Source: Candidatus Egerieisoma sp. (lineage in GTDB: Bacteria; Bacteroidota; Bacteroidia; Bacteroidales; UBA932). Taken from it: DNA of 64,000 nucleotides. Below the pieces are notes generated by a model. That model ran no database searches and was not told the DNA's origin. It saw only the letters and a program-made list of their open reading frames with translations. The number at the start of each line of letters is the position of its first letter. The stretch's first letter is position 1. The translations under genes were made by a program, and so were the position numbers. This document shows positions 40,258-64,000 of this stretch, piece by piece. Where the stretch lies: NCBI GenBank assembly GCA_045645465.1, contig JAZRIV010000007.1, forward strand, positions 5,114 to 69,113. Direction: 5' to 3'.

Positions 40258-40292
40258 ACTGTAAGCTCAATTAGATTTAAAATATTTTAAGA

Positions 40293-43476: not shown

Positions 43477-43625
43477 CTCCGCTATACCCGCAATGGCAAA
43501 AAGTTATAATCCTCGAAATCGTTTCATTACTTAACTAAGTATTCCAAAGTTTTAAAAAATAATCCCAATGATAGCTAAAATTATTTTCATTAATTTTGTT
43601 AAGGATGCAGAAAGTTTTATAAGAT

Positions 43626-43713
43626 ATGTGGTGCAAATGTGGTGCAACCAAAAAGAAAAACCCTCTTAGAGATATCTCTAAGAGGGTTTCAAGTACCCAG
43701 AGCCGGGGTCGAA
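43626..43713. repeat. att junction at the tRNA: tandem ATGTGGTGCAA motifs, terminator hairpin and 21-bp core (part of the tRNA)
   Basis: ATGTGGTGCAA occurs at 43626-43636 and again at 43637-43647. The core GTACCCAGAGCCGGGGTCGAA lies at 43693-43713. Confidence 0.8.
43651..43686 (-). terminator. Rho-independent terminator of tRNA-Leu, supplied by the end of the integrated element
   Basis: Perfect 13-bp arms CCCTCTTAGAGAT/ATCTCTAAGAGGG, followed on the minus strand by TTTTTCTTTT. Confidence 0.7.
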
Positions 43714-46855: not shown

Positions 46856-47359
46856 TTACTTGATCTCCATAGCCATAATATAGTCAGTCATATAATACCC
46901 GTGGCCTATATCAAAATCGCCACGTGAGGCTTTGTGCATCCCCATCCGCTCATAAAAGGCCACCGCCTTTACATTATCTCTGTTCACATTCAGTTCCATA
47001 GTACAAGGAAGCAACCCATTCTCCCTGATATACTCCACAGCCTTGCAGAACATCTTCTTCCCGACAGATTTTCCCTGTAACCCTTCCCTCAAATAAATCT
47101 TCTGCAAATGCCACAACCTCTCACCCTGTTGCTGCACAGAAAGGTACCCTACCGGAACATCATTATCATACACAATATGATATATATGCCCCTCCTCTTC
47201 TATCTGCTTGCACAGGCTCTTCTGGGAATACATCCAGTCCATCATATAATCTATCTGCCCAGGAGAGAGCATCACCTTATAGGTAGACCTGAATATCTCC
47301 TGAGCCAACTCCTCAATAAGAGGAGTATCCTCCAATGTCGCTTTTTTGAAAGTTAACAT
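46856..47359 (-). CDS. GNAT family N-acetyltransferase
   Basis: 167 aa with the acetyl-CoA binding motif region LQGKSVGKKMF and AVAFYERMGM. Confidence 0.85.
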   Translation of the reverse strand: MLTFKKATLEDTPLIEELAQEIFRSTYKVMLSPGQIDYMMDWMYSQKSLCKQIEEEGHIYHIVYDNDVPVGYLSVQQQGERLWHLQKIYLREGLQGKSVGKKMFCKAVEYIRENGLLPCTMELNVNRDNVKAVAFYERMGMHKASRGDFDIGHGYYMTDYIMAMEIK

Positions 47360-48744
47360 TGCATCTCTTTCTCAACCTCCTCCGGTGTAATAGGAAGTCT
47401 CTTGCTACCCAACATTCTGCAACCGGTTTCAGTAATTACAATATCATCCTCAAGTCTTATACCACCAAAAGTCCTGTATGCTTTAAGAGCCTCAAAATTG
47501 ATGAAGTCTTTATTGGTTCCCTCTGCCTCCCACTGGTCTATAAGGGCTGGGATAAAGTAACAGCCTGGCTCTACGGTAAGTACGTGACCTGTCTTAAGCA
47601 TCTTGCCCATTCTCAAACTTGCAAGACCAAACTGGGTAGAAGGACGGCACTCGTCGTCGTAGCCTACATAAATCTGGCCCAAATCCTCCATATCGTGAAC
47701 ATCCAAACCCATATTATGACCCAAACCGTGAGGCATAAACAATGCGTGTGCTCCAGCTGCAACAGCCTCATCTACGTTACCTTTCATAAGGCCCAAATCT
47801 GCAAGTCCTTGAGCCAGTACCTTACAGGCTGCAAGATGGACCTCTTTATAGGTAATGCCAGGTTTTGCAATATCCTGTGCAAGATTGTTTGCTGCTGCCA
47901 CAATATTGTAAATCTCTTTCTGCTGCTGTGTAAACTTGCCGCTGCTTGGGATTGTACGGGTAAAGTCAGAACAGTAGTTCATATTGTTCTCTGCACCTGC
48001 ATCAATTACAATAAGTCTTCCATCGGTAAGAATCTGATGATGGGAGTGGTTATGAAGAGTCTCTCCATTCTGTGAAAGAATTGTCGGGAAGGAAGTCATT
48101 GCTCCGTATGAATGTGCAATACCCTCCATAACACCTGCTATCTCCTGCTCCACCATACCCAACTTGGCCATCTTCATTGCAGTAAAATGCATCTGGTAAC
48201 CAATATCACACGCCTTGTGAATCTCATCCAACTCACACTGCTCCTTAATGATTCTCAAATCTACAACTGCCTTAATAAGCTCCAATGAAGCCTCTGCTTT
48301 AAGATTTGCAATAGGGATATTCAAAAGGGCATTCAAAAGAATTTTGTTGTGATTACGGTAAGGTGGCAAAAAATGCACCTTTCTACCCTCTTTCTGAGCC
48401 TGCTCCAAATATTTGCCAAGTGCACCAAAAGGCTCTGTGTGAGAAATACCCACTTTCTCACCTTTCTCTGCTATGGTTGGCTGAGGACCCATCCAAATGA
48501 TATCATCCATATCCACATTATTTCCAAACAGAATCTCCTCCCCACTCTGAGGATCCAAAATTGCAGCCAAATCAGGCTCATTATGGCCAAAGAAATAAAG
48601 GAAAGTACTGTCTTGTCTGAACTTGTAGGTATTTGCAGGATAATTGCTTGAAGCCTCACTGTTACCCAACAAAAGGATAATTCCATTATCTATTTTCTCC
48701 ATCAGACGCTTGCGTCTATTTATATAAGTCTCTTTTGCAAACAT
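47353..48744 (-). CDS. Aminopeptidase P family (M24B, Xaa-Pro aminopeptidase)
   Basis: N-terminal AMP_N-like domain, with M24 metal-ligand motifs DAGAENNMNYCSDFTRT, HGLGHNMGLDVHD, LTVEPG and IRLEDD. Confidence 0.9.
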   Translation of the reverse strand: MFAKETYINRRKRLMEKIDNGIILLLGNSEASSNYPANTYKFRQDSTFLYFFGHNEPDLAAILDPQSGEEILFGNNVDMDDIIWMGPQPTIAEKGEKVGISHTEPFGALGKYLEQAQKEGRKVHFLPPYRNHNKILLNALLNIPIANLKAEASLELIKAVVDLRIIKEQCELDEIHKACDIGYQMHFTAMKMAKLGMVEQEIAGVMEGIAHSYGAMTSFPTILSQNGETLHNHSHHQILTDGRLIVIDAGAENNMNYCSDFTRTIPSSGKFTQQQKEIYNIVAAANNLAQDIAKPGITYKEVHLAACKVLAQGLADLGLMKGNVDEAVAAGAHALFMPHGLGHNMGLDVHDMEDLGQIYVGYDDECRPSTQFGLASLRMGKMLKTGHVLTVEPGCYFIPALIDQWEAEGTNKDFINFEALKAYRTFGGIRLEDDIVITETGCRMLGSKRLPITPEEVEKEMQC

Positions 48745-48802
48745 AGTATTTGAAATTTTTGTGTCTGTACCAAAGATAAATATTATTTCTCCATTTGAAG
48801 AT

Positions 48803-50218
48803 TTATTTTAAATCTATTTCTTCTGTATATTTCTTTCCTGCTGCATCAGTTACAACAATTTTCACTACTCCGGCATTTGCTGATGGTGTTGCAGAAAAAT
48901 AGAAATAGCTGTCGGGAATAGCTGATACCGCACCTTTACATCCATTGAGCGCATATCCCATTTGCAAAGCTGTGTGATAATCCGGATCTTTTCCGCTATA
49001 TTGCTTCATATCCCCTCTATATTCATTATCCTCATACCATTCCACCTTCCACCGGTTGTCCCAATTCCAAACTTTAACACATATATCATTAAGGTGTCCT
49101 TTTACTGTACCAATCGGATAAACTTTCATCTGATAATCTTCAGGCTTGCCTGTAGACTTCCAGAAATTTGTTATCCCCTTATGATTTGAATCAAACACCT
49201 GGTATCCGCACGGAGTTCCATCCCTGCTGTACATAACATCCCATATCCACCATGCACCCCCTACAGAAGCAATATTGAACTCCCTCATATTCTCATTTAT
49301 CTCATAGTTGTATTGTATATGGGTATGACCGCTTATAACGGTTACTTTATAATCTTTGAACAAACCAACAAACTCATCAGCCATAACCATCTTATAGTCT
49401 TTCCATCTGTAAAAGAACACAGGAGCATGCATCGCCACAAAAATATGCGAACCTTTTGGAACATATTTCAGATAATCCTTAACCCAGTTTATCTGTCTGC
49501 TATCCAACCCTTCCTTATAATTTTCAATACCATTATACAAAATGTTGTCCAGTACTATATAATAATCCCTACCCGCGTTAAATGCATAATACGCAGGACC
49601 AAAATGTTTGCTGTATTCACGTGAACTTGCCAAATCCTCTGTCACATTCATATCATGATCATGATTTCCAATAACTGGCCATACAGGCATCTGGATATTA
49701 TGCATCATCTCCTGAATGTGTGGATACAGATTCAGGTTATCATATAGGATATCGCCCAAAAAAATACTGAATACCGGCAAATTATTTTCTCGGCACTTCT
49801 TGCCCATCTCCCTAAGATCTGCAAAAGCCTCATGTTCCAATCTGTAAAAAGCATTGTCACCTTTTGGCTGGGGGTCTCCAACTGCCAATAACCTGTAAGT
49901 TCCACCCGGAACACCAAACTCATATAGCTCAAAGTCAAAATCAGAGCCATTCAAATCTCTATAAAATAATGGAGTACCACCCTTGCATGCAGGTATATAT
50001 CCCGACGGAGTTACAATATATATATGTTCAGCATCTTTGGAAACTTTTAAAGAATAAACTCCTTTGGAATCTGTTACTGTAAAGTATTTTCCATCTGTTA
50101 CAACAACACCAGACAAACCTTTACCAGCGTTAAAAACTTTACCGCTTATTGTTTTTGCATAACTGTTGCCCAAAAAGCAAAGAGTCAGGAATAATGTGAG
50201 AAGTATTTTCATAATCAA
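48803..50218 (-). CDS. Secreted calcineurin-like metallophosphoesterase with an N-terminal carboxypeptidase-regulatory-like domain
   Basis: Signal peptide with motifs VGDPQ, LGDILYDN, GNHDHD and SGHTH. It lies downstream of a SusC/SusD pair. Confidence 0.85.
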   Translation of the reverse strand: MIMKILLTLFLTLCFLGNSYAKTISGKVFNAGKGLSGVVVTDGKYFTVTDSKGVYSLKVSKDAEHIYIVTPSGYIPACKGGTPLFYRDLNGSDFDFELYEFGVPGGTYRLLAVGDPQPKGDNAFYRLEHEAFADLREMGKKCRENNLPVFSIFLGDILYDNLNLYPHIQEMMHNIQMPVWPVIGNHDHDMNVTEDLASSREYSKHFGPAYYAFNAGRDYYIVLDNILYNGIENYKEGLDSRQINWVKDYLKYVPKGSHIFVAMHAPVFFYRWKDYKMVMADEFVGLFKDYKVTVISGHTHIQYNYEINENMREFNIASVGGAWWIWDVMYSRDGTPCGYQVFDSNHKGITNFWKSTGKPEDYQMKVYPIGTVKGHLNDICVKVWNWDNRWKVEWYEDNEYRGDMKQYSGKDPDYHTALQMGYALNGCKGAVSAIPDSYFYFSATPSANAGVVKIVVTDAAGKKYTEEIDLK

Positions 50219-50292
50219 TCATTTGTTAAAAAAAGAGGAGACCGTAAATACGGTCTCCTCAAAATTAGCAAATATTTGTTAATTTATAACAA

Positions 50293-52218
50293 TTATTCCC
50301 AACCTGGGTTCTGCTCAATAGTGTAACCTCTTGTAATGTACTGAGAAATAACATCTGTACAAACTGGCTCAAGATAGTTTCTCTCCTCAACATTGTATCT
50401 GTTGGCAACGTTTGTAGGAATTACAAAACCAACCATGTCAGCTTTATTCTCACCATCATATACAACTACTGAACCGTCAAGTTTCTGAACTTTAAGTTTA
50501 CCAATCTGGTTATCTTTCAACAAGTCAAATACTTTCTGGTTTCTTGCAGGATCTGAAGTCTCATTGTAATCAATCCAAGCACCAACAAGGATGTCTGGGT
50601 TGATGTCACCATCCATTAGCTCAAGTTTACCCCAACGGCGGATATCCATCATACGAGTCTGCTCCATGTAGAACTCCATACGGCGCTCTCTACGGATCTC
50701 CCATAGAAGTGCAGAACCTGTAATACCACCTTTAGTCTTAGCCTCAACCTCTGAAGTACGAGCAGGATCATCAACTAGCTCAGCAAGGATAAGCGGAGCA
50801 GTTTTCTGTACACCTACAGCAATTGCCTCATCATCAAGTGGACGGTTACGGATAGCATTGATTGATCTGTCAATATCATCCTGAGTAACTTTAGCACCAC
50901 CAAAGTGGATAGCAAGCTCCTCTTTAGCCTCAATCCAGTTAAGGACAACCTCAGCCAAACGGATAATAGGAGCACCGTTGGTATTGGTGTTAGAAGCATA
51001 TTTTGCAGGTCTTACTTTACCCTGTTTAACGCTCTCATCAAGAGAGTAAGTAGGACCCTCACGGTCGATGAATTTAGTACAGTAGATACCAGTTGGAGTG
51101 TTTGCTGGCTCTCTCCAGAAAGTAGCCTCAAAACGAGGGTCACGGGTAACAGCCATATCCTGAATTCTCCAGCTGTCAGCATTAGCTACAGCAGACTCAG
51201 TATAAGGTTTACCATCGTTACAAATCCAAGATTTAAGGTTAGATAGGTTAGCTGTATAACCCTGGCTCTCAGTAAGGTTAGAGTATGAAGCAATACAGTG
51301 GGTAGATTTACCCTCCAAAGATGCTCTAAACATAATGGTCTCAGTACCTTTCTGTGCAGTTGAACCAAACAATGAACGGAAATCTGTATCAAATGCAAAT
51401 TTGCCTGAGTTCATTACAACCTCTGCATATCTAACAGATGCCTCCAAGAATTTCTTAGCATCAGCAGAATAGTCGTACCAGTTTTTATGGTAGTTATACC
51501 AAGTAGCCTCAAACAACATGAATCTCGAAGCGAATGCTGCAACAACATATTTGTTAATGTAGTTTGCGCCATCATTCTCTCTTACGTTTGCAACAGCATA
51601 GTCCAAATCCTCCATAGCTTTGGTCATAACCATATTACGAGGGTCTCTTGCTTTGTACTGGTTATCGAAATCCTCAGCATCTACAACATAGTCATAGTAA
51701 GGAACATCACCAAATGACATTACAAAACGGAAATACTCGTATGCTCTAAGGAAACGTGCAACACCTGTCCAGTGGCCATAAGCCTCATCGTTAAGTACGC
51801 CGTTCTCTTTCATCATATCAAGTCTGTCAATCATAAGGTTCCATTTACGGATCCATCCAAAGTTCCAAGGACCTGCACCAGTATACTGAATCCAGTATGG
51901 AGCAGAACTCTCAGCTCTGTACCAGTTATCAGCAGGAACAGCTTGTCTTAGGTTAGCCTGCATAGCAGTTTTAGTGTTGTCATCACTCCACTCACCAGGA
52001 TATACACCTGGAACATAAGGAGTGGTCCATCCTGATGCATAACCAACAAAATAAGTAGGATATGCATAGTTTACAAAATAACGTAGGTTATTCTCTGATG
52101 TCCAGAAGTTTCCATCGTCCATTGTGGTCTTAGACTCACGATTTAGGAAACTTTCACAACTTGTCAAGGCAAGTAGTGTTATTGAGAACAATAAATATGT
52201 TAATTTTTTCATTTTCAT
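50293..52218 (-). CDS. SusD/RagB family nutrient-binding outer membrane lipoprotein (pair 1)
   Basis: Lipobox LALTSC, a TPR-like SusD fold sequence and the C-terminal ...EQNPGWE typical of the family. It starts 8 nt after its susC. Confidence 0.9.
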   Translation of the reverse strand: MKMKKLTYLLFSITLLALTSCESFLNRESKTTMDDGNFWTSENNLRYFVNYAYPTYFVGYASGWTTPYVPGVYPGEWSDDNTKTAMQANLRQAVPADNWYRAESSAPYWIQYTGAGPWNFGWIRKWNLMIDRLDMMKENGVLNDEAYGHWTGVARFLRAYEYFRFVMSFGDVPYYDYVVDAEDFDNQYKARDPRNMVMTKAMEDLDYAVANVRENDGANYINKYVVAAFASRFMLFEATWYNYHKNWYDYSADAKKFLEASVRYAEVVMNSGKFAFDTDFRSLFGSTAQKGTETIMFRASLEGKSTHCIASYSNLTESQGYTANLSNLKSWICNDGKPYTESAVANADSWRIQDMAVTRDPRFEATFWREPANTPTGIYCTKFIDREGPTYSLDESVKQGKVRPAKYASNTNTNGAPIIRLAEVVLNWIEAKEELAIHFGGAKVTQDDIDRSINAIRNRPLDDEAIAVGVQKTAPLILAELVDDPARTSEVEAKTKGGITGSALLWEIRRERRMEFYMEQTRMMDIRRWGKLELMDGDINPDILVGAWIDYNETSDPARNQKVFDLLKDNQIGKLKVQKLDGSVVVYDGENKADMVGFVIPTNVANRYNVEERNYLEPVCTDVISQYITRGYTIEQNPGWE

Positions 52219-52226
52219 TTATCTTA

Positions 52227-55200
52227 TTAGAAAGTTAACTGAACACCAAATGAAGCACTCTTGAAGGTTGGAGTACCAACACCAGCTCTACCACTGTTGT
52301 AGTTGCTCTCGTTGAATGATGAGTAACCTGGAGTCTCCTCAACGTCAATTGGAAGTCCGTTCAAGTTATCAAATGTCAAGAAATTCTCCAATGATGCATA
52401 TACGCGTAGTTTGCTGATATGAGCTTTCTTAAGAATCTTCTCAGGGATTGAGTAACCCAAAGTTACGTTCTTAAGTCTCAAGTAAGACATATCCAAAAGA
52501 TATTTGTCTGATACCTGCATATTGAAACCAGTTGATGATGTACCAAGGTTATAAGCTCTTGGATAGAAAGCATCATAATTAGCATCAACAACTTTACCGT
52601 CTACGATAGTCTCATACCAGAAGTCCTCTGCAAATGCCTGAGCCATACAACCACCACCTGTATCAAATCCTGGGATTGACAAGTGTGAAGAACCCCACAT
52701 CTGTTTTGAACCGATACCCTGGAAGAATGCAGAGAAATCGAATCCTTTGTATGCCAAGTCAACACGGAAGTTATACTCATAACGAGGAGTAGTGTTACCA
52801 ATAACTGTAAGGTCACCGTGGTTCTCTACTGTACCAATACCATACTCTTTGTTTGAAGGATCACCGTTGTTGATTACGCCGTCACCGTTAAGGTCTTTGA
52901 ATTTAACGTCACCAGGGCCAAAGATATACTGACCAGAGTTGTATTTACCCTGAGTTGGCATATTAGGGTCTGAGAACTGGTAAACATTGTAACCATCATC
53001 AGATTTTACAGTAACCAAGTTACCGTTTGCATCGTATACGAAGTCATCTTTTGTAAATAGTCTGTCAACTTTGAAACCCCAGATCTCACCGTAAGTTTTA
53101 CCGTTGTACCAGTTACCTACTGTACGGCCTGTACCATACTCGTCAATTGTTGTTACAGCATCTGCAACACCAGCAGTTACGTTAATGCTGAAACCACTCT
53201 CAAATACGTGGCCATAATCCAAAGCCAACTCCCAACCTTTAGTTGTTAGGAAACCGAAGTTACCCTTAGGAGCTGAAGAACCGAAACCATAACCAACACC
53301 CTCCATAGGAACGATCATGTTGTTGGTTTTTCTCTGATACCAGTCAAATGTTACACCCAATTTGTTGAACAATTTAGCGTCCAAACCAAAACCAAGGGTA
53401 GTAATATCCTGCCAAGTGATAGTTGAAGCTACTGCTGAAGGAGTTGCAAAGTAAGGGTCATTTACTTTACCATCGTGAACCCAAGAAGTAGAACCCAAGC
53501 CCATAGTAGGAATATACAATGAACCTGCTACTGACTGGTCACCGATAGTACCCCATGAACCTCTAACTTTCAAAGAAGAAAGAACAGATTTTGCACCCTC
53601 CATCCAAGGCTCCTCAGTTACACGCCAAGCAGCAGAGAATGATGGGAACCATCTCCATTTAAGCTCACCAGGGAATTTTGAAGTACCATCGTAACGAAGG
53701 TTAGCCTCAACAAGATATTTCTCTTTGTAGTTGTAGTTGATACGGCCAAATACACCAAACTGTGAGTTCCAAGAGTGGCTACCGCCAGTTGTCTGGTCAC
53801 CAGTTGCAAGATCGAACTGAGGGTTGTCATAAACCAACAAGTTTTTCTTGTTACCCCATACACTCTCGTACTCGTAGCTAACTGCCTGAAGACCTAGCAT
53901 AAAGTTGAAGTTGTGGTTCTCCTTAATCTGAAGGTCATAAGTAGTTTTAGCGTTGAAAGTCTGACGCTCAGAAACACCAGCATCTTTGTAAATTCTGTTG
54001 AAAGAAGATGCAGAAGATGTATTTACATACTCATAAGGAGCAAAGTACTGTGCAGTTAGAGTGCTTCCCATTTTGTTGAACTCGTTCCACTCATTATTTA
54101 CAGTGTGACCATCTGGATATGCTGTTGAAGAATACCATAGGTGACCACCAGTAAAGCTTGAACCAGGATAAGTGTTTCTTACCTCGTTAGTAGCATAAGT
54201 GTAGTCGAAATCAATATTCCAGTCTTTTAGAGGAGTAATTGTTGTACCTGCATTTACACTGGTATATCTGTTGATTGTAGAAGCTTTGTTAGCAATTGAA
54301 GTCTCATAAGTTGCACTGTTCAAGTTGTTGCCATACTCATCTGTAGGAACAAGAGGATAGTTGGCACCCCAACGGAACAAGTAGTACCATACGTCTGAAG
54401 TAGTTGAAGTACTTGAGTATGCCCAGTTCTTCTCAGTTTTAGAGAACATCAAACCTGCACGTACGCTAATCCAGTCATTAACTTTAGTATTAACGCGAAC
54501 GTTAGCATTGTAACGGCTGTATTTGTCAAAATCGGTAGTTTTCATCATACCGCTCTGATCCAAGAAACCCAAGCTGATGTTGTAGTTGGTGTTACCAGAT
54601 TTACCTGCAACAGACAAGTTGTGAGTCTGAGAAGGAGCATTCTTTCTTACCAAATACTCATATGGATCATAAGTACGGATACCTACTTTATATTTGCCAT
54701 CCAAAAGATACCAGTCACGACCGTAAGTTAGAGGAGACATAGGATCAAGGTCAGCATATTTCTCTTTCCAAGCTTTAGCAGCATTGTAACCAGCACGGTC
54801 AATCAACCAGAAAGCACCTGAAGGAGTGTAAGTACCACCACGCTCAGCAGCCTCAACTACATAGTGCAAACCATCAACACCTGCAATCTCGAAATCTTTA
54901 GCCTGGTTCTGGAAAGCAACGTTACCAGAGTAAGATACACTTACAGACTCAGTTTTAGCACCTTTCTTAGATGTGATCAAGATAACACCAAACGCAGCTT
55001 TAGCACCGTAGATAGCTGAAGAAGCAGCATCTTTCAATACTGAGATTGACTCGATGTCATCTGGGTTAACCATCTGGATTGAAGGAATCTCAACGTTATC
55101 CAAAAGGATAAGTGGTGCAGAAGAACCCTGAGCTGAACCAACCTGACCACGGATTCTGATAGTAGACTCTGAACCTACCTCACCAGAACCTGAGTTAACG

Positions 55201-55673
55201 TTCAAACCAGGAGTCATACCCTGAAGACCACGACCAACGTCAGCAATAGGACGGCTCTCCAAAGCCTTAGAAACGTTAACTGAAGCTACAGCACCAGTAA
55301 GGTTCTCTTTTTTCTGAGTACCGAAACCGATAACCACAACGTCATCCAACATCTCTGAATCCTCTTTCATTGTTACGTTAATAACAGCTTTGCCATTAAC
55401 TGCAACAACCTCATTTTTCATACCCACCAAAGTGAACTCTAGAGTGCCATTTGAAGGTACGCTGATCTGGTATTTACCATCTACATCGGTAGAAGTACCG
55501 TTTGAAGTACCCTGTACCAATACATACGCACCAATAATTGGCTCTCCATTCACATCTGTAACAGTACCTGTAACAGATATGTTCTGTGCCCAAGCGCTAA
55601 TTGAGAACGCTACAGCCACAAGTGTCATCATTACAAAACGTAATGAGCGACTTAGATTTTTGTGAATGAACAT
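52227..55673 (-). CDS. SusC/RagA family TonB-linked outer membrane transporter (pair 1)
   Basis: 1148 aa with a signal peptide and a carboxypeptidase-regulatory-like domain (VTGTVTDVNGEPIIGAYV). A plug and TonB box region (DVVVIGFGTQKKENLTGA) precede the terminal aromatic ...FGVQLTF. Confidence 0.95.
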   Translation of the reverse strand: MFIHKNLSRSLRFVMMTLVAVAFSISAWAQNISVTGTVTDVNGEPIIGAYVLVQGTSNGTSTDVDGKYQISVPSNGTLEFTLVGMKNEVVAVNGKAVINVTMKEDSEMLDDVVVIGFGTQKKENLTGAVASVNVSKALESRPIADVGRGLQGMTPGLNVNSGSGEVGSESTIRIRGQVGSAQGSSAPLILLDNVEIPSIQMVNPDDIESISVLKDAASSAIYGAKAAFGVILITSKKGAKTESVSVSYSGNVAFQNQAKDFEIAGVDGLHYVVEAAERGGTYTPSGAFWLIDRAGYNAAKAWKEKYADLDPMSPLTYGRDWYLLDGKYKVGIRTYDPYEYLVRKNAPSQTHNLSVAGKSGNTNYNISLGFLDQSGMMKTTDFDKYSRYNANVRVNTKVNDWISVRAGLMFSKTEKNWAYSSTSTTSDVWYYLFRWGANYPLVPTDEYGNNLNSATYETSIANKASTINRYTSVNAGTTITPLKDWNIDFDYTYATNEVRNTYPGSSFTGGHLWYSSTAYPDGHTVNNEWNEFNKMGSTLTAQYFAPYEYVNTSSASSFNRIYKDAGVSERQTFNAKTTYDLQIKENHNFNFMLGLQAVSYEYESVWGNKKNLLVYDNPQFDLATGDQTTGGSHSWNSQFGVFGRINYNYKEKYLVEANLRYDGTSKFPGELKWRWFPSFSAAWRVTEEPWMEGAKSVLSSLKVRGSWGTIGDQSVAGSLYIPTMGLGSTSWVHDGKVNDPYFATPSAVASTITWQDITTLGFGLDAKLFNKLGVTFDWYQRKTNNMIVPMEGVGYGFGSSAPKGNFGFLTTKGWELALDYGHVFESGFSINVTAGVADAVTTIDEYGTGRTVGNWYNGKTYGEIWGFKVDRLFTKDDFVYDANGNLVTVKSDDGYNVYQFSDPNMPTQGKYNSGQYIFGPGDVKFKDLNGDGVINNGDPSNKEYGIGTVENHGDLTVIGNTTPRYEYNFRVDLAYKGFDFSAFFQGIGSKQMWGSSHLSIPGFDTGGGCMAQAFAEDFWYETIVDGKVVDANYDAFYPRAYNLGTSSTGFNMQVSDKYLLDMSYLRLKNVTLGYSIPEKILKKAHISKLRVYASLENFLTFDNLNGLPIDVEETPGYSSFNESNYNSGRAGVGTPTFKSASFGVQLTF

Positions 55674-55695
55674 AAAATAAATTTTAGGTTAATAA
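55622..55695. repeat. Left arm of a 74-bp inverted repeat (5'UTR plus first 17 codons of susC pair 1)
   Basis: Its reverse complement matches 56048-56121 at 70 of 74 positions by manual alignment, with perfect blocks of 30 and 29 bp. Confidence 0.85.
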
Positions 55696-55739
55696 ATAAT
55701 TGTTATAATGTTTGGTTTTAGTTTCTCCATACTATCTTG

Positions 55740-55747
55740 CAAAGGTA
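55740..55747 (-). promoter_or_regulatory. -7 promoter box (TACCTTTG on the minus strand) facing susC pair 1
   Basis: Exact TAnnTTTG match 66 nt upstream of ATG 55673, inside the spacer between the inverted repeats. Confidence 0.45.
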
Positions 55748-55993
55748 TAAATTATATTGTGATTTCCTTAAAAAACATGCTTTTTTTATCCATGGAAACC
55801 ACTTTTTATTTAAAATTCACACCTTAAACCCAATTATGCAAGATTCACACTTTTAACGCTCCATACTAACCAATGAGACATCTGACGCATAAAAACTACA
55901 CTAAAGATTACCTCAAATAAAATTAAATTTATCATATATAGGTATTCCCGACAAAAAAGTACTTTTGAAATAACAACTTTATGATATTTTTTT

Positions 55994-56001
55994 TACATTT
56001 G
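55994..56001 (+). promoter_or_regulatory. -7 promoter box (TACATTTG) facing susC pair 2
   Basis: Exact TAnnTTTG match 68 nt upstream of ATG 56070, inside the spacer between the inverted repeats. Confidence 0.45.
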
Positions 56002-56047
56002 TTTGATAATTTGCTCGAATATTTATTCAAACCAAAACAACATTTTA

Positions 56048-56121
56048 TTATTAACCTAAAATTTATTTTATGTTCACTCAAAAAAATCTAAGTCGCTCAT
56101 TACGTTTTGTAGTGATGGCAC
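56048..56121. repeat. Right arm of the 74-bp inverted repeat (5'UTR plus first 17 codons of susC pair 2)
   Basis: See the left arm. It includes the ATG at 56070. Confidence 0.85.
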
Positions 56122-59100
56122 TTGCTTCTTTGATTCTATCTACAGGAGCAATTTGGGCACAGAATGTAAAAGTTAGCGGTACAGTATCCGATGTAAACGG
56201 AGAGCCTCTTATTGGCGCATATGTATTGCTACAGGGTACCTCTACAGGTACCTCTACCGACATTGACGGTAAATACGTTATTGATGTCCCAGCTAACGGA
56301 ACTTTGGTATTCCAACTAATGGGTATGCAGGAGCAGGCAATTCCTGTAAACAACCGTTCAGTTATCAATGTAACCCTTGAAGAGGATGCGGTTATGTTGG
56401 AGGACGTTGTTGTAACTGCATTGGGTATCAAAAAAGAGAGAAAATCATTGGGTTATGCAGTATCAGACATCAAAGCTGATGAGTTGATGAAAAACAAAAC
56501 TGCCAACCCTATTTCTTCACTTTCTGGTAAGATTGCCGGTGTTAACATCACTCAGTCTGGTGGTGGTGCAGGTTCTGGTGCTCAGATTATCCTACGTGGT
56601 GGTACTTCTGCTGCTGAGGGTAAAGATAACCAGCCTCTAATTGTTGTAGACGGTATCATCTATGATAACTCTTCTTCAGTTGGTGGTAACTCTGCATTTG
56701 ACGGCTCTACAAAATCTTCAACTACCACTTCTAACCGTTTGATGGACTTGAACCCAGAGGATATTGAGAACATGTCAGTTCTTAAAGGCCCTGCTGCTGC
56801 AGCTCTTTACGGTTCACGTGCTGCTAACGGTGTGATTGTTGTTACAACAAAGAGCGGTAAAGCTGGTACAGTTGAGGTTAACGTAAGCTCAAGATTCTCT
56901 TCTTCATGGGTAACACACCTTCCTCAGGTTCAGAACCAGTATACAAGAGGTTATATGGAGGAGGAGTATGATGCAAACGGTAACTATGTTAGAACTAACT
57001 TCAACGATTTTTCATACACTTCTTGGGGTGAGAAATCAAACGCAAAAACTTACGACAACATTGGAGACTTCTTCCAGACTGGTAACGTTTTTGACGAGAG
57101 CGTTAGTGTAGCCGGTGGTACAGAGAACAGCAAATACTACCTATCAGGTTCATACTATGATCAGACAGGTGTTGTTCCATTGACAGGTTACAACAAATAC
57201 ACTGTACGTTTCAACGGAGAGCAGAAAGTTGGTTTGTTTACTTTCTCTGCAAACGTATCTTACTCAGAGGCTCATACAGACAAAACCCTTACTTCTGCCG
57301 GTCTTTATGGTTCATCAGGTACAGGTGCTGTAGCAGCTGTTTACACTTGGTCTCCATTTGATGATATGAAACATTACTTGAACGAGGATGGTTCACGTTA
57401 TCAGATGTTTGGTGACAGATTGGATCCATGGGATGAGAAAGACAACCCTTACTGGATTATCAACAAAAACAAGATTTGGGATGACAACCAGCGTTGGACA
57501 GGTTCAGTGAAAGTTAAAGCTGACGTTACCAAATGGTGGTTCTTGTCTTACAACATTGGTTTGGATATGTATACTCAGGTCAACTCCAAGAGAATTGCTC
57601 CAGGTGGTGCAATCAAGGATGTATGGCAGAAAGGTATGATGTCTGACAATACAATGCGTTTCAAATATTTGTCTCACAACTTCATGTCAAACATGAACAA
57701 ACAGTGGGGTAAATTTGACGTTAACCTAATGTTGGGTGCTTCAATTGAGGATACTCAGACTGACCGTCAATCTATGTTGGCTTACAACTTCTCAGTTCCT
57801 AACTTCTTCTCTTACGCAAATGCTACTGATAATAATAAAGATTTCTCACACAGTTCTTCTCAGAAGAGACTTGCAGGTGTATTTGGTGAGGTTAGAGCTT
57901 CTTGGAACAGCACAGTATTCCTAACAGTAACAGGACGTAACGACTGGACATCTACTCTACCTAAAGAGAACCGTTCATACTTCTATCCATCAGTAAGTGG
58001 ATCAGTTGTATTCACTGAGCCTCTTGTAAAAGCTGGTATCCTTGACAATGACAGCGCAATTACTTTCGGTAAAATCCGTGCATCTTGGGCTGAGGTAGGT
58101 AAAGATACAGGTGTATACGAGACAAGTACAGCTCTATGGCCAGTAGGTACATATCTTGGTGGTGCTATTGGTGTTGGTAACAACTGGGAGCGTGGTAACC
58201 CTTACTTGAAACCAGAGAAAACAAGATCTACAGAGTTGGGTATTGAGATGGCATTCTTCAAAAACAGATTCCGTGTTGACTATGCTTACTATACTAACAA
58301 CTCATTCAACCAGATTCTAAGTCCACGTGGTCCTCAGTCTACCGGTTATATCTTCTGCTCTATCAACGCAGGTAACGTATATAATAAAGGTATGGAGCTA
58401 CAGATTTCAGGTACTCCAATTGAGAATAAAGAGTTCACTTGGGATATGAGCTTGAATATGGCTGGTAACCGTGGTACTTTGGACGGTCTTCCTGAGGGTC
58501 TTGACGTTATGTACTTAACAGATGTACAGTATGCTAACATGCAGGCTGCTTCATTTAACGGCGGTAAATTCATGGCTATCGCAGGTTACAAATGGAACAG
58601 AGATGAGGCTGGCAACGTAATCCTTGACGCTAACGGTATGCCTACTTACACTACTGCTCTTGAGGAGATTGGTAATCGTGAGTCTACTTTCACTGGTGGT
58701 TTCAATAACACTCTATCTTGGAAAGGATTTACATTCAACATGTTGTGGGAGTTCCGCGTAGGTGGTGACGTTGTAAACGGTACTCAGTACGCTATGGATA
58801 ATGCAGGTACCAGCCAGTTCTCTGCTGATTTCCGTAACAAACCTCTAACTGTTTCTGGTGTTGACAAAGACGGTAACCCTGTAACCAACACTTGGGAGGC
58901 TGACAAAACTTATATGTATTCAGGTAAAGTTACCAGCGGTTACAACATCATCCAAAGCTACTATCAGAGCTACTATAACAAGGAGTGTGCTAACTACATT
59001 ACAGATGTAAATCTACTAAGATTGCGCTCACTATCTTTGTCATATAACTTCCCTAAAGCTTTGATGAAGAAAACCGGTTTCTTGAAAGGTGCTAACGTAT

Positions 59101-59261
59101 CAGTTGCTGCAAACAACTTATTGTTGTTCACCAACTACAATGGCGATCCTGAGGCTGCTGCTGCAGGTGCTGGTGTTGGTGGTTCATCTTCAGTTGGTTT
59201 CGACTACTGCGGTATCCCTTCAACTTCAGGTATGACATTCGGTATTAACCTGACATTCTAA
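56070..59261 (+). CDS. SusC/RagA family TonB-linked outer membrane transporter (pair 2)
   Basis: 1063 aa with the same domain order as pair 1. The TonB box region is DVVVTALGIKKERKSLGYA and the C-terminus is ...FGINLTF. Confidence 0.95.
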   Translation: MFTQKNLSRSLRFVVMALASLILSTGAIWAQNVKVSGTVSDVNGEPLIGAYVLLQGTSTGTSTDIDGKYVIDVPANGTLVFQLMGMQEQAIPVNNRSVINVTLEEDAVMLEDVVVTALGIKKERKSLGYAVSDIKADELMKNKTANPISSLSGKIAGVNITQSGGGAGSGAQIILRGGTSAAEGKDNQPLIVVDGIIYDNSSSVGGNSAFDGSTKSSTTTSNRLMDLNPEDIENMSVLKGPAAAALYGSRAANGVIVVTTKSGKAGTVEVNVSSRFSSSWVTHLPQVQNQYTRGYMEEEYDANGNYVRTNFNDFSYTSWGEKSNAKTYDNIGDFFQTGNVFDESVSVAGGTENSKYYLSGSYYDQTGVVPLTGYNKYTVRFNGEQKVGLFTFSANVSYSEAHTDKTLTSAGLYGSSGTGAVAAVYTWSPFDDMKHYLNEDGSRYQMFGDRLDPWDEKDNPYWIINKNKIWDDNQRWTGSVKVKADVTKWWFLSYNIGLDMYTQVNSKRIAPGGAIKDVWQKGMMSDNTMRFKYLSHNFMSNMNKQWGKFDVNLMLGASIEDTQTDRQSMLAYNFSVPNFFSYANATDNNKDFSHSSSQKRLAGVFGEVRASWNSTVFLTVTGRNDWTSTLPKENRSYFYPSVSGSVVFTEPLVKAGILDNDSAITFGKIRASWAEVGKDTGVYETSTALWPVGTYLGGAIGVGNNWERGNPYLKPEKTRSTELGIEMAFFKNRFRVDYAYYTNNSFNQILSPRGPQSTGYIFCSINAGNVYNKGMELQISGTPIENKEFTWDMSLNMAGNRGTLDGLPEGLDVMYLTDVQYANMQAASFNGGKFMAIAGYKWNRDEAGNVILDANGMPTYTTALEEIGNRESTFTGGFNNTLSWKGFTFNMLWEFRVGGDVVNGTQYAMDNAGTSQFSADFRNKPLTVSGVDKDGNPVTNTWEADKTYMYSGKVTSGYNIIQSYYQSYYNKECANYITDVNLLRLRSLSLSYNFPKALMKKTGFLKGANVSVAANNLLLFTNYNGDPEAAAAGAGVGGSSSVGFDYCGIPSTSGMTFGINLTF

Positions 59262-59295
59262 ACTAAACAATAAATAATATTAATATTGAAATATT

Positions 59296-61167
59296 ATGAA
59301 ATTAATTAAATCAATTATATTGTGCGGTATTTGCTTGATGGCTCTATCGTTGACATCTTGCGACAAATGGCTGGATGTTAATACCGATCCTGAGAACCCA
59401 TCTTCAGCAAGTGCTACATATGAGAACCGTTTGGCGCATATTGAGTTCTATACCAACAGTGCCACACAATTCGCTTCTTGGCGTTCTACTATGTCAATGG
59501 GTGACTGGACACGTAACTACAATGGTAGTACTTATTGGCATATGTCATATTGGAATCCTCAGCAGGGTGCTGTAACTACAGCTTACCAGTGGTGGTTTGT
59601 AGGTGCTGCTTGTAACATTGAGGATATGTATACAAAAGCAATGGAGGCAGAGGCTTGGCACTATGCCGGTGTTGCAAGAATTATCTACGCTTACGGTTAT
59701 ATGCTAATGACTGACCTTCACGGTGAGATGCCTTTCACTGAGGGTATTGGCGAGGATGCAACTCCTGCTTATGACAATGGTAAAACTATCTACCTTGGCT
59801 GTTTGGAAGCTTTGGATCAGGGTCTTGATCTTCTTGCGAAATCTCAGTCTTCACTTCTTCCAGCTCTTTCAGTTGGTGACTGGTGGGGTGGCGGAAACGT
59901 TCAGAAATGGATTAAATTCGGTAACCTTCTAAAAGCTCGTTGGATCAACAAACTTAACAAGAAACAGGCTGGTTCTTACAAAGATGGAAAATATGATGTT
60001 GATGCTATCCTTACAGCTCTTGCAAATGCTCCACAGAGCAATGGTGACAATATGATTATCAACCATACTGATGACAACAGTACAACTCACGACGTTCTTG
60101 GTTGGGATGAGCCAGTTGACTACTCTCCACTTTACTCAGTATCAGGTATGAACTCAGGTTATATGGCAACAGAGATGTTGTATAATAACCTTACAAACTT
60201 TGCTGGTTATGGCGTAGAGGACCCACGTGCAGACAAGATCCTTCCTTGGGCATACTCTCCTAAAGCTGCTCCTGGTGAGTACAAACTGCTTAACGGCTGG
60301 AGACGTACTCTTGGTGTTGATATGACTTCTCAGAATTCTCCAAGCTTGGTTAACGGTCCTATCCGCGCTTCTTATGCTACAGCTGAGGGCGGTTGGTACA
60401 TTCAGACTGACCTTGTTGAGCGCAAAGGCGATACAGTTTATGTAGAGGCTACCTCTTCTTCTAAAGGTTATGCTGCAAACCGTGACCTTCTTTATAGAAG
60501 AGCTAACGTTCTTACAGGTGCTGCTGGTGAGGATGACCTACAGGCTGCAGAGTCTGGTACATACTACACTCGCGTTTCATCATACACTTACCTTTCTACT
60601 TATGCTGAGGCTTGCTTCATCAAAGCTGAGGTATTGTTCAACAAAGGTGACAAATCTGGTGCATACGCTGCTTACAAAGAGGGTATCAAAGCTTCTATGG
60701 AGCAGATGAACGTTAAATTAAACTTGTGGGTTAATGAGGATGCATCTCTTGCAAGATGTCCTTCATTCACTCCAATGGCTCAGGAGGATATGGATAACTT
60801 CCTTGCTAACGGTATCGGTTCTCAGAATGATCTTACTCTAGGTCACATTCTTACTCAGAAACGTATTGCAATGAATTTCTCTGTAGAAATCTGGAACGAT
60901 ATGAGAAGATATGACTTCAATCCTGATTTGTTCTTCGGTTGGGGTATCCCTGCATTGCACGATGTTACTGCTGCTGCTTTGAAAGGTATTCCTGCTGGCA
61001 AACAGTTCCGCAGATGGAGACAGTGTTCACACGAGTTCAACTACAATGCTGATAACCTGCAGGCTATCGGTAACGAGGTTCCAGGTGCAAATATGTCACT
61101 TGACCAGTGGAACCAGGCTGATGACGCTTGGACAATCAATGTATGGTGGGATTCAGACCAACAGTAA
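59296..61167 (+). CDS. SusD/RagB family nutrient-binding outer membrane lipoprotein (pair 2)
   Basis: Lipobox LSLTSC in a 623-aa SusD-like sequence, directly downstream of susC pair 2. Confidence 0.85.
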   Translation: MKLIKSIILCGICLMALSLTSCDKWLDVNTDPENPSSASATYENRLAHIEFYTNSATQFASWRSTMSMGDWTRNYNGSTYWHMSYWNPQQGAVTTAYQWWFVGAACNIEDMYTKAMEAEAWHYAGVARIIYAYGYMLMTDLHGEMPFTEGIGEDATPAYDNGKTIYLGCLEALDQGLDLLAKSQSSLLPALSVGDWWGGGNVQKWIKFGNLLKARWINKLNKKQAGSYKDGKYDVDAILTALANAPQSNGDNMIINHTDDNSTTHDVLGWDEPVDYSPLYSVSGMNSGYMATEMLYNNLTNFAGYGVEDPRADKILPWAYSPKAAPGEYKLLNGWRRTLGVDMTSQNSPSLVNGPIRASYATAEGGWYIQTDLVERKGDTVYVEATSSSKGYAANRDLLYRRANVLTGAAGEDDLQAAESGTYYTRVSSYTYLSTYAEACFIKAEVLFNKGDKSGAYAAYKEGIKASMEQMNVKLNLWVNEDASLARCPSFTPMAQEDMDNFLANGIGSQNDLTLGHILTQKRIAMNFSVEIWNDMRRYDFNPDLFFGWGIPALHDVTAAALKGIPAGKQFRRWRQCSHEFNYNADNLQAIGNEVPGANMSLDQWNQADDAWTINVWWDSDQQ

Positions 61168-61195
61168 TCCTTTAACATAACATTGTTTATATAGA

Positions 61196-61225
61196 ACAGG
61201 CAACCAAATGGTTGCCTGTTTTTTG
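61196..61225 (+). terminator. Rho-independent terminator between convergent SusD genes
   Basis: ACAGGCAACC-aaat-GGTTGCCTGT is a perfect 10-bp stem, followed by TTTTTT. Confidence 0.75.
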
Positions 61226-61233
61226 TATAGAAT

Positions 61234-62940
61234 CTACCACCCTGGGTTCTGAGGAAAATCCACCCCTTTGAGCTGGTAGAGGGTGAGCTGTCCGGTAGGG
61301 ATTGCATCAAGGTAGTTTTTAGGCACCTCAACCGGGCGCCCCACACCAACTCCATAAGGGAGAATGTATCCGTCTGATGAGATGGACAATCCGTCGGGAA
61401 GAGCATCAGGTGCTGCTGAGGCGGAGGCAATGCGGGCACCAAGGAATATATCCGGTTTTACTGCAGGATTAAGGTATTCCAGTTTGCCCCATCTGCGGAT
61501 ATCCCACTCCCTGAACCCATCCATAATGAGTTCGCTGCGGCGCTCCCTGCGTATCTCCCATAATAGAGGTGAAACATCTGCATCCCGCAATGGGTCATTT
61601 GGAACGGCTCCCAGAAGAAGTGGAGCCACCCCTGCCCTGGCACGAAGCAAATTCACCGTTGCATCCAAATCTCCCTGGGTAAGAACTCCAAGTTCTGCTG
61701 AAGCCTCTGCATAATTCAAAAGCACCTCGGCCAACCAGAAGATTGGGGCATCTGTAGGGTTATTTGGAGCCAGCACTTCAGAAGCTCCCAACCCCTCATT
61801 ATTGAATTTGGCAATAATATATCCTGTGCTGGAGGTGAACCCTTTCTCGTTAGGGTTGCCTATGTATGCCAGTTCCCCCTCCACAGACTGCACAAGGCGC
61901 AAATCCCTGTTTGAGAGAGTTTGGGAAATTGTCTCATCGCCCGCATACATTGGAGACAATGAGATTGGAAGCCCGTCGGAGCACAGGAATGAATTTACCG
62001 CATCTTTTGTAAGTCCGCTCATCATTGTACTGCTGTTTGTATACCCAATTACCGAGTGGGTAAGGATACCCGAAACATACGATTTATAAAGCAGCACCTC
62101 AGGATTTTTTGAGAGGTCCAATGAGCCGTACAGCTGGTGGTAAACTGGGGTAAGGGAGAAACTGTTCTTCCCGATAACATTTCCTGCAGCCTCCCTTGCA
62201 ATCTGCAGAAGTGCAGCAGCACGGGCAGCATCCCCTGCAACATATTTGGCATAACTTCCCTCATACAAGGCAACCCTGCTCATATATGCCCACACCACCT
62301 CCTGGGAAACCATATTTGCATCCCCAAGAGCCTTGTTCCTGTCTGTAGAGCGGATACTTTGGGCAGCAAACTGCAAGTCAGCCATTATACTGTCAACAAC
62401 AGCCGCACGTGGGGTACGTGGGGCATATATTGCCTCAACTTCACTCTGGTCCAGATACCTGTTTATATATGGTACATCTCCAAAATGGCGTACCAGGTTG
62501 GCATACTCAAATGCCCTGAAGAAACGGGCCACCCCCAAATAGTGGTTTGCAGCCTCAGCAGTAAGCGACTCCATAGCCGGCACCCTCTCCAACAACAGAT
62601 TTGCCTTTCTTATATAGGTATAATCCCAATGGGAGTTGGAGGCTGGGGCTGCTGTAGGGAACAAATCCATTGAGCGGGCCGCCTGGTCATCTGTAAATGT
62701 GGTGAAGTAAAAATCGCCGTTTGTACCTGTTCCATAACCTGTAAAAAGGTTGTAGAATTCCCAGCAATAGGATTTTACGTTGTTCTCACTTGTCCAGAAT
62801 GTTTCATCGCTGAACACAACTTTTGAACCCCTGTCCAAAAAATCTTTTGAACAGGACGCAAGCAATACTGCTATTGCAAGTATTGCAAAAACTCTTGCCC
62901 CTCCCCATTGTCTGCCTGTTGTATAATATCTCTTTTTCAT
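61234..62940 (-). CDS. SusD/RagB family nutrient-binding outer membrane lipoprotein (pair 3)
   Basis: Lipobox LLASC in a 568-aa SusD-like sequence ending ...PQNPGW. Confidence 0.9.
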   Translation of the reverse strand: MKKRYYTTGRQWGGARVFAILAIAVLLASCSKDFLDRGSKVVFSDETFWTSENNVKSYCWEFYNLFTGYGTGTNGDFYFTTFTDDQAARSMDLFPTAAPASNSHWDYTYIRKANLLLERVPAMESLTAEAANHYLGVARFFRAFEYANLVRHFGDVPYINRYLDQSEVEAIYAPRTPRAAVVDSIMADLQFAAQSIRSTDRNKALGDANMVSQEVVWAYMSRVALYEGSYAKYVAGDAARAAALLQIAREAAGNVIGKNSFSLTPVYHQLYGSLDLSKNPEVLLYKSYVSGILTHSVIGYTNSSTMMSGLTKDAVNSFLCSDGLPISLSPMYAGDETISQTLSNRDLRLVQSVEGELAYIGNPNEKGFTSSTGYIIAKFNNEGLGASEVLAPNNPTDAPIFWLAEVLLNYAEASAELGVLTQGDLDATVNLLRARAGVAPLLLGAVPNDPLRDADVSPLLWEIRRERRSELIMDGFREWDIRRWGKLEYLNPAVKPDIFLGARIASASAAPDALPDGLSISSDGYILPYGVGVGRPVEVPKNYLDAIPTGQLTLYQLKGVDFPQNPGW

Positions 62941-62952
62941 AATGTCTCCTTT

Positions 62953-64000
62953 TTACATAGTAAGTTGTATTCCAAATGAAAGTATCCTCTCAAACGGAGC
63001 AGTTCTGCCGTAGAAGTTTGAGGTAGAAGAACCTGCAGTAATCTCAGGGTCAATAGGAATCTTTTTCTGTGAGAATTCAAACAGATTCTCCCCACTGAAG
63101 TACACTCTTGCCTTTGTAAGGTTTGCCCTGCTGATCAATCTGTCGGGAAGAGAATACCCTATTGTAAGATTTTTCAGCCTCAAATATGAGAGGTTAAGAA
63201 GGTATTTTGTTTGTGGATAGAAGTTGTTACCGCTGTTTGCTGCCGCATTTGCCATATACCTTATACCGCTGATTGCTGTTGAGCCGTTGCCGGTGTATGG
63301 AAGCGGATATTTTGCATCAGGGTTCTCAGGGCTCCAGAAATCCATCTGGTGCTGGTACATCACATCTGCACCCCTGTAGTAAGGGATTGCCTCATTGCCT
63401 GTTGCCCAAAGTTGTCTCTTCCCTATGCCCTGGAAATAAATGTCCACATCAAACCCCTTCCAGGCACCTCCTACCCTAAAGCTGTACTGGTACCTTGGAG
63501 TTGTATTTCCTATTACCTTAAGGTCTCCGTGGTCCTGTAGGGTTGAAGCCCCTGCAGAAATTACATTGTCCCCGTTAAGGTCTTTGTATTTTATGTCACC
63601 AGGGCCAAATACAAAGTTGCCGGTCTGCAACCCCACCTGGCTTGGTGATGCCGCCACATCCTCTGCCGATGTAAAGTAACGGTCTGTTTCAAATCCCCAA
63701 ATCTCTCCAATAGTTTTACCTTTATAGTTGGAGGTAAGAAGATTGGCAGAATTTGCATTCCACTGGGTAATGACACTCTTGTAGTCACTCACATTTACAT
63801 TGGCGTAAATGCTCAAGCCATTTGAGAAGGTGTGGCCTCCATCTATGGTAACCTCCCAGCCACGGGTTCTCAAACGTCCGTCATTTACCATTGCGGCTGC
63901 AGTACCAAAACTCTCAGGGAGGGTTTCGCCCACACTCAACATATTGCGGTTCTCACGCTGGAACCAGTCAAAGGTTATTCCGTAGCGGTTATTGAAGAAC
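62953..64000 (-). CDS. SusC/RagA family TonB-linked outer membrane transporter (pair 3), C-terminal part only
   Basis: The frame is open to the window edge; upstream of the ORF-track Met it reads FFNNRYGITFDWFQRENRNM. The C-terminus ...FGIQLTM is typical of the family. Confidence 0.9.
   Translation of the reverse strand, partial: FFNNRYGITFDWFQRENRNMLSVGETLPESFGTAAAMVNDGRLRTRGWEVTIDGGHTFSNGLSIYANVNVSDYKSVITQWNANSANLLTSNYKGKTIGEIWGFETDRYFTSAEDVAASPSQVGLQTGNFVFGPGDIKYKDLNGDNVISAGASTLQDHGDLKVIGNTTPRYQYSFRVGGAWKGFDVDIYFQGIGKRQLWATGNEAIPYYRGADVMYQHQMDFWSPENPDAKYPLPYTGNGSTAISGIRYMANAAANSGNNFYPQTKYLLNLSYLRLKNLTIGYSLPDRLISRANLTKARVYFSGENLFEFSQKKIPIDPEITAGSSTSNFYGRTAPFERILSFGIQLTM

Follow-up and report, generated by a model that had tools for sequence, protein, structure and literature searches.

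The stretch of 64,000 nucleotides (nt) analysed here, hereafter the window, comes from Candidatus Egerieisoma sp. (contig JAZRIV010000007.1, positions 5,114 to 69,113) and contains two divergently transcribed susC genes whose 5' ends form a long inverted repeat. susC-A (52227..55673, minus strand, 1148 amino acids (aa)) is followed by susD-A (50293..52218, minus strand, 641 aa), and susC-B (56070..59261, plus strand, 1063 aa) by susD-B (59296..61167, plus strand, 623 aa). Both susC products are SusC-type receptors with CarboxypepD_reg, Plug and barrel domains. An inverted-repeat search delimited two arms of 95 nt, arm A at 55619..55713 (minus strand) and arm B at 56030..56124 (plus strand), which are 88% complementary and lie 316 nt apart. 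Each arm corresponds to positions -40..+55 relative to the ATG of its gene and thus covers, in susC-A, most of the 5' untranslated region (5'UTR) and codons 1-18. Within the arms a 74-nt core (55622-55695 and 56048-56121) matches at 70/74 positions, with 22/22 in the leader and 48/52 in the coding part. Perfect blocks of 30 nt and 26 nt occur exactly twice each in the 64 kb and found no match in 100 shuffles, and a repeat scan with a 40-nt minimum returned this arm pair as the sole inverted repeat of at least 40 nt in the whole window. The inverted repeat is real and no chance match. The initial annotation had described it as a 74-bp repeat made up of the leaders and first codons of two divergent susC genes, and both parts of that description hold.

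The two receptors share 27% global protein identity, and exact-protein look-ups with the SusC-A and SusC-B of the window found nothing on record. Codons 1-18 differ at four positions, all of them nonsynonymous (I/T, H/Q, M/V, T/A), and carry no synonymous difference. Downstream of the arms the nucleotide identity of the two genes lies at the level of paralogues (30-55% per 60-nt window) and climbs back to 82% at +120..+180, in the CarboxypepD_reg domain. The proposed fall to ordinary paralogue similarity behind the arms is confirmed, but it is not monotonic.

The spacer between the arms (55714..56029, no strand assigned) is AT-rich, with a G+C content of 25.6%, and holds two divergent predicted promoters. 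As had been claimed, one TAnnTTTG box faces each gene. The -7 box of the promoter of susC-A (P_A), TACCTTTG, lies on the minus strand at 55740..55747, 66 nt upstream of the susC-A ATG and inside the motif CAATATAATTTATACCTTTG, and the candidate -7 box of the promoter of susC-B (P_B), TACATTTG, lies on the plus strand at 55994..56001, 68 nt upstream of the susC-B ATG. Both boxes sit just outside their respective arms. The search for TAnnTTTG returned a second candidate box for P_B, TACTTTTG, on the plus strand at 55960..55967. A scan for sigma-70-type promoters and terminators was uninformative (3 sites vs 3.4 expected).

We interpret the inverted repeat, with a probability of roughly 0.55, as two head-to-head copies of a conserved susC 5' module rather than as recombinase sites around an invertible promoter. 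The arms would be the homologous 5' ends of divergent paralogous susC mRNAs, extending from just past the promoter to codon 18, and the module would act at the mRNA level, by taking part in the initiation of translation or by binding a small RNA (sRNA) or an RNA-binding protein (RBP). For comparison we used contigs carrying SusC-B orthologues from a protein search (labelled L, with SusC-B identities from 99% down to ~70%). The head-to-head A/B pair is kept in all lineages examined, including those in which it lies in a different genomic context (L036-40, L041-42, L043-44). Both genes carry the module in L022, L023, L025, L026, L009, L036-40 and L043 and the B gene alone does so in L041, and it could be traced at both members of the pair down to ~72% SusC-B identity. 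Its parts are an A/C-rich, G-poor leader, a UUAACCUAAA box at -20..-11 (55683..55692 on the minus strand for susC-A, 56051..56060 on the plus strand for susC-B), the start AUG UUC A and an 11-bp hairpin at +23..+50. The leader box is nearly invariant in all lineages, and little or no variation is seen in the box and in the AUGUUC start among 18 copies from eight lineages. In 337 kb, a covariance model of the module gave 36 matches, all at starts of A- or B-type susC genes and none elsewhere. Rfam contains no relevant match to 54500-57500 at E<=1, and just two tRNAs reached the gathering score in the whole window. Scans of genome and metagenome contigs with the 20-mer TCTAAGTCGCTCATTACGTT from the arm yielded chance matches in unrelated sequence only, mostly Lachnospiraceae loci and one Kapaibacterium metagenome-assembled genome. 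In one of the relatives the upstream susC gene (L037, 6503-9313, GCA_964383385.1) is called with 936 aa and without N-terminal domains, compared with 1122-1137 aa in L036, L038 and L040; a frameshift, a pseudogene or a difference in gene calling may account for this.

The predicted hairpin occupies 55624..55651 on the minus strand in susC-A (GUCG-C-UCAUUAC-GUUUU-GUAAUGA-UGAC) and 56092..56119 on the plus strand in susC-B, where, compared with A, two of the pairs are G-U wobbles. Shuffled sequences fold less well than the 74-nt arms (z-scores of the arms -2.3 and -1.7). Across 17 copies, 91.4% of cells are paired, both partners have changed in 4/11 pairs, and the sense strand shows G-U intermediates; the covariation score of this set was reached by 0/500 shuffles and collapsed in slid controls. 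In an RNAalifold analysis of 18 copies, compensatory changes were reported for 6 pairs. Compensation in some cases involves nonsynonymous changes, for example GTA->GCA (V->A) paired with the synonymous change TTA->TTG. Two distant copies form a stem of different sequence at the same place, namely the upstream copy of L043 (CGCC-C-GGUAUUAC-AUUUA-GUAAUAUU-GGCG) and the B copy of L041 (AGCCGCC-UCUU-GGUGGCU). RNAalifold also proposes a weak helix of AACCUAAAA and UUUUAUGUU across the start codon.

The high identity of the two arms in the window has a further source. In the 74-nt core, A and B agree at 59-61/74 positions in L022, L023, L025 and L026 and at 53-54/74 in L009 and L038, and an identity of 70/74 is confined to the subclade of the window. 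Here susC-B reads CATTACGTTTTG, which is the A type, while the B orthologues in L022, L023, L025 and L026 read CGCTACGTCT(T/A)G. The SLRF motif that results from CATTACGTTTTG is found in one subclade of B orthologues only; the others have SLRL. By comparison with these orthologues, susC-B of the window apparently carries a short A-to-B gene-conversion tract, and it is because of this patch that the identity reaches 70/74. Occasional conversion over short tracts probably tops up the identity of the arms.

Conversion of this kind raises the question of whether the module needs a function at all. Under neutral paralogy with concerted evolution only, an old duplication of the 5' region would have been kept alike by recombination or conversion, and neither box nor hairpin would have a function of its own. 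The proteins agree with this to some extent, as A and B are 52% identical over their first 160 aa and 24% in their bodies, which is usual for SusC. So do the mosaic N-termini of several B orthologues: P0013, P0014, P0028 and P0022-25 have A-type MFIHK starts, susC-B of L009 is of the A type in leader and signal peptide as far as ~+85, and in L038 the signal peptides of A and B are more alike than either is to its own orthologues; the conversion patch in the window points the same way. However, type-specific differences (A/B: -17 T/C, codon 3 ATT/ACT, codon 4 CAC/CAA) are constant over five lineages. Since these differences persist, conversion must be sporadic, and the near-invariant leader around them needs another cause. 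Nor would neutral conversion be expected to produce the compensatory changes of the stem, of which some are nonsynonymous. The likeness to concerted evolution by gene conversion is nevertheless clear in the mosaic patches, in the ratio of four nonsynonymous to zero synonymous differences and in a paralogue identity above that of sister lineages; the difference is that fixed type-specific positions persist and that conversion alone cannot explain the invariant leader. We consider an exclusively neutral origin doubtful. The initial annotation had also proposed a shared RNA-level control site kept uniform by gene conversion, and of its proposals this one fits best: the conserved module, the compensatory hairpin and the conversion patch are in line with it, while the function at the RNA level is something that we infer.

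An inverted repeat around two promoters could also belong to an invertible promoter cassette. The other proposal had been a spacer that inverts and thereby swaps the regulatory regions of the two operons; a recombinase provided in trans and acting, for example, at the ATGTTCA start motif would flip the ~320-390-bp spacer and exchange P_A and P_B. The arms are inverted around both promoters, and the only TGTTCA motifs in 55500-56300 are those of the two start codons, which are mutually inverted. The same 5-nt motif lies at the inversion breakpoints of the sister lineages L025 and L026 described below, Bacteroides invertases can act globally in trans (PMC4747536), and the conversion patch is the trace of a past interaction of the arms. 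The overall layout resembles that of the invertible promoters of Bacteroides (Mpi-, Tsr19- and S-layer-type), in which inverted repeats enclose an AT-rich segment of a few hundred bp with TAnnTTTG boxes. Known invertons, however, have repeats of ~17-30 bp outside coding sequence and one promoter, and both orientations are seen (10.1101/521070; PMC4747536). Here, the arms that bracket the two TAnnTTTG boxes are atypically long and partly coding: 95 nt over 5'UTR and 18 codons, reaching 55 nt into the coding sequence and thus far above the 15-30 bp typical of inverton repeats. Moreover, they enclose two divergent promoters, and a single orientation was found.

This orientation is constant among the relatives. 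The motif CAATATAATTTATACCTTTG is kept beside the A-type genes in L022, L023, L025 and L026, and in an alignment of the spacer with that of L022 the left part corresponds to the A side and the right part to the B side, with a middle that cannot be aligned. In ~30 related contigs from at least seven lineages, CAATATAATTTATACCTTTG invariably adjoins the A-type gene and the B-side spacer sequence adjoins susC-B. Polarity is identical in the window, L022, L023/24, L025, L026-35 and L009, including lineages with a larger inversion, and a spacer flipped on its own was seen in none of the assemblies examined (the window and these contigs). Each flanking gene owns a promoter box, and the two distances are equivalent (66 and 68 nt); inversion would hence exchange the promoters and not turn a gene ON or OFF. 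Finally, the absence of an invertase gene beside the repeat, noted earlier, was borne out. The lone tyrosine recombinase in the 64 kb (32302-33660) was considered as an invertase and rejected, as it belongs, as the integrase, to an 11.6-kb element that has att repeats at a tRNA-Leu gene; a globally acting invertase may still be encoded at a distance. In view of the uniform polarity, the separate promoters and the lack of a nearby invertase, we find no support for the swapping spacer at this locus and regard an invertible promoter cassette as very unlikely.

Inverted repeats at susC 5' ends do serve inversion in other members of the group, and to this extent the link between the repeat and DNA inversion drawn in the annotation is retained for sister lineages, with their ~530-bp repeats, third susC and 5.7-kb block, but not for the spacer of the window. 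In the sister lineages the A-type module is longer (~530 bp, -51..+480) and present as an inverted duplicate at a third, promoterless cassette; the two copies bracket a 5.7-kb block. In L012 and L023 the upstream A gene and a third susC gene beyond susD-B are ~100% identical from -51 to +480, in inverted orientation. The third susC gene (L023, L026) is located behind the susD-B terminator and has no P_A box, so that this susC/susD cassette looks silent and promoterless. Among all A-type susC genes the first 160 aa are 78-100% identical and the bodies 33-92%. The 5.7-kb block, which comprises P_A, P_B, susC-B, susD-B and the terminator, occurs in both orientations among the sister lineages, and as judged from the assembled contigs its orientation changes the cassette that P_A faces.

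The best case is provided by L025, a 244-kb contig of GCA_052839545.1, and L026, which represents ten contigs and is ~96% identical to L025. Their central blocks are opposite relative to the flanks formed by M24 peptidase/Metallophos on one side and susC-E/susD-E on the other. The junctions (L025 ~9651 and ~15175; L026 ~9666 and ~15180) map to a 5-nt TGTTC motif that is located in unique sequence and precedes the A-type ATGs by ~85 nt. The breakpoint sequences read cattttaaATGTTCAattaag on the spacer side and aattaatTGTTCGtataaag on the intergenic side, and their downstream parts are exchanged in L025. The intergenic site has two copies of the motif (ATGTTCA-aattaat-TGTTCG), and ATGTTCA is also the start-codon context of every A- and B-type susC gene. 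Since the junctions are in unique sequence, the comparison is robust, and by this measure an assembly artefact is excluded as the source of the inversion. L022 carries the motif upstream of susC-A inverted (TGAACAT), and the window has a 27-nt deletion there. A second pair of contigs, L023 and L024, shows the same two states at 99.96% identity over 7975 nt. Its value as proof of inversion within a strain was downgraded to weak: the switch occurs within a perfect repeat of ~440 nt, and as short-read assemblers are unable to resolve this repeat, a mis-join is possible. The states of the sister lineages are to be read as fixed alternatives between related assemblies and not as variation within a population. 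No integrase family is listed within +/-10 kb of susC-B in L022, L023, L025, L026 or L036.

Further irregularities were noted in the assemblies. One contig (L028, ERZ27248446 k141_1109052) carries M24 peptidase and Metallophos genes on either side; its left 8.9 kb are 100% identical to L026 and its right 8 kb correspond to the reversed left flank of L023 (99.6%), and it is either a chimera of two co-occurring lineages joined via the shared repeat or a real recombinant. Many short-read contigs (L013-L021, L030-L032) end 140-180 or ~450 nt into an A-type susC gene. These ends coincide with the edge of the ~530-bp inverted repeat and indicate that metagenome assemblies systematically break or mis-join this locus.

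The cassette inversion of the sister lineages is a known kind of system in Bacteroides (PMC4747536, 10.1101/521070, PMC9881135). Shufflon-type SusC/SusD inversions depend on the tyrosine invertase Tsr0667 in B. fragilis (PMC4747536), and the BT1032-BT1053 shufflon, a polysaccharide utilization locus (PUL) of B. thetaiotaomicron, on the tyrosine recombinase BT1041 with a 7-bp crossover (10.1101/521070), which may be compared with the 5-nt TGTTC of L025 and L026. As in those shufflons (PMC4747536, 10.1101/521070, PMC9881135), several susC paralogues of one locus have common 5' ends, and recombination at these ends re-links a promoter-bearing segment to alternative susC/susD cassettes. A 5' segment common to at least two susC genes in an orientation that permits recombination exists in the window (74-95 nt) as well as in the relatives (~530 nt), inverted in both cases; an expression site combined with a promoterless silent cassette exists in L023 and L026 and not in the window. 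The window differs from the shufflons in having two module copies, both with promoters, no silent cassette and no recombinase in the locus. The sister lineages in turn differ from B. thetaiotaomicron, where recombination sites are directly repeated and silent genes truncated at the 5' end, in having a full-length inverted silent copy.

Could the window nevertheless contain one arm of an active shufflon, with the A arm (~470-nt constant region) or the B arm recombining with silent susC cassettes outside the 64 kb? The closest relative offers some indications. In the B/E region the window is 95.5% identical to L022. The first ~470 nt of susC-A (~55200-55673) form an A-type constant 5' region that is 93-100% identical to L022, and behind it nucleotide identity is 75-82% (82% in the comparison of A bodies, which are 84% identical in amino acids). 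The Metallophos gene between M24 peptidase and susD-A (48803-50218) is present in the window, L023 and L026 and absent in L022 (4044-4162). SusC is, in addition, a recurrent target of programmed inversions (PMC9881135, 10.1101/521070). The differing A bodies behind a constant 5' region suggest cassette replacement with the constant region as recombination anchor. The loss or gain of the Metallophos gene coincides with a different A-type cassette body.

Against an active shufflon arm, a difference in the A bodies is equally explained by allelic replacement through homologous recombination between strains. The repeat scan, the block search and the covariance model returned no third module copy in the 64-kb window. 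The L022 locus, flanked by M24 peptidase and LpxK, has only the pairs A, B and E, and susC-E, which was considered as a recombination partner, was rejected as it is without the module. The slot that holds an extra cassette in relatives is empty: in the sister lineages the susD-B terminator is followed by TGTTC sites and the third promoterless A-type susC/susD cassette, whereas behind this terminator the window and L022 contain neither TGTTC sites nor a third cassette and the convergent susD-E comes directly next. In the window the terminator hairpin (61196..61224, plus strand) abuts the end of susD-E. The window and L022 are collinear, and no alternative arrangement was seen in the lineage of the window. 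As there is no third cassette in the window, the cassette switch is absent here or has its partner elsewhere in the genome. We consider participation of the window arms in an active shufflon improbable, to about the same degree as an invertible promoter.

A conserved 5' module acting on the mRNA thus remains our preferred interpretation, and its RNA-level role is suggested by analogy with FopS and RbpB together with the modest covariation. FopS sRNAs act on susC start regions in B. thetaiotaomicron (PMC11697453). In the control exerted by the FopS/GibS sRNAs and RbpB, the control point common to paralogous susC mRNAs is the start of the Sus-like operon's first gene (PMC11697453), as it may be here. 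The systems differ in that no FopS/GibS homologue was detected in the window, that the UUAACCUAAA box and the hairpin are found neither in PMC11697453 nor in Rfam, and that regulation at this locus is putative.

Several observations weigh against this interpretation. Among orthologues the block is a little better conserved than the next 360 nt (e.g. 92-95% vs 89%), and an extra constraint on it at the nucleotide level is not strongly demonstrated by these alignments. The covariation sample is small and its members are phylogenetically related, and according to the program's own warning 5-25% of alignments without structure may score higher than every shuffle. In the L036-38 lineage the hairpin is badly preserved (4/6 inner pairs or fewer), and the predicted helix AACCUAAAA/UUUUAUGUU never varies, which places it beyond the reach of covariation. 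The Rfam search found no GibS or FopS match in the window and no cognate sRNA. The direction of the A-side patch CTAAGTCGC is ambiguous, as A-type genes of L009 carry similar sequence. Transcription starts were deduced from consensus boxes, so the arms are only approximately the 5' ends of two predicted mRNAs. Finally, spacer orientation was judged from assemblies alone, and flipping within a population would escape such a comparison.

Three SusC/SusD pairs lie in 47353-63942, namely A, B and the convergent E (61234-62940, and 62953 to beyond 63942), and no glycoside hydrolase, hybrid two-component system (HTCS), extracytoplasmic function (ECF) sigma or SusR regulator gene was found near them. 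Their neighbours encode a Xaa-Pro aminopeptidase (M24, 47353-48744) and a calcineurin-like phosphoesterase (48803-50218). The locus is no classical PUL, and peptides or phosphorylated compounds are conceivable substrates of the pairs (RagAB-like). Searching proteins with the 159-aa A-type N-terminus yielded short fragments only and did not help in counting cassette bodies. The element to which the tyrosine recombinase belongs is an integrated mobilisable element of ~11.6 kb (32110-43713) with 21-nt direct repeats, GTACCCAGAGCCGGGGTCGAA, at 32110-32130 and 43693-43713, the right one being the 3' end of tRNA-Leu(CAA). Its G+C content is 37.9% compared with 42% in the flanks. Besides the tyrosine integrase (32302-33660) it encodes a histidine-kinase-like open reading frame (ORF), a helix-turn-helix (HTH) protein, a DnaC/IstB-like ATPase (38839-39483), a MobA-like ORF (39669-40049) and an AlbA_2/fimbrillin-like ORF (40293-41537).

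The findings call for caution in the interpretation of inverted repeats around Bacteroidales promoters: not every such repeat is an inverton, and head-to-head paralogues with a common 5' module mimic the signature. Beyond this, two leads emerge. The first is a candidate cis-regulatory module of box and hairpin at susC starts in uncultured Bacteroidales, which could extend post-transcriptional control of the FopS/RbpB type among Sus-like systems. We tentatively suggest, as a possibility that may well prove wrong, that box and hairpin constitute an undescribed structured 5' mRNA element absent from Rfam, which would define a head-to-head susC subfamily in Bacteroidales, couple its translation to a common trans factor (sRNA or RBP) and, in some lineages, supply the homology for cassette-switching inversions. 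The second lead is the recombinase-less SusC/SusD cassette switch in the sister lineages, with one breakpoint pair at the 5-nt TGTTC. Variation of the surface-exposed SusC/SusD proteins bears on evasion of phages and of the immune system and on the choice of nutrients.

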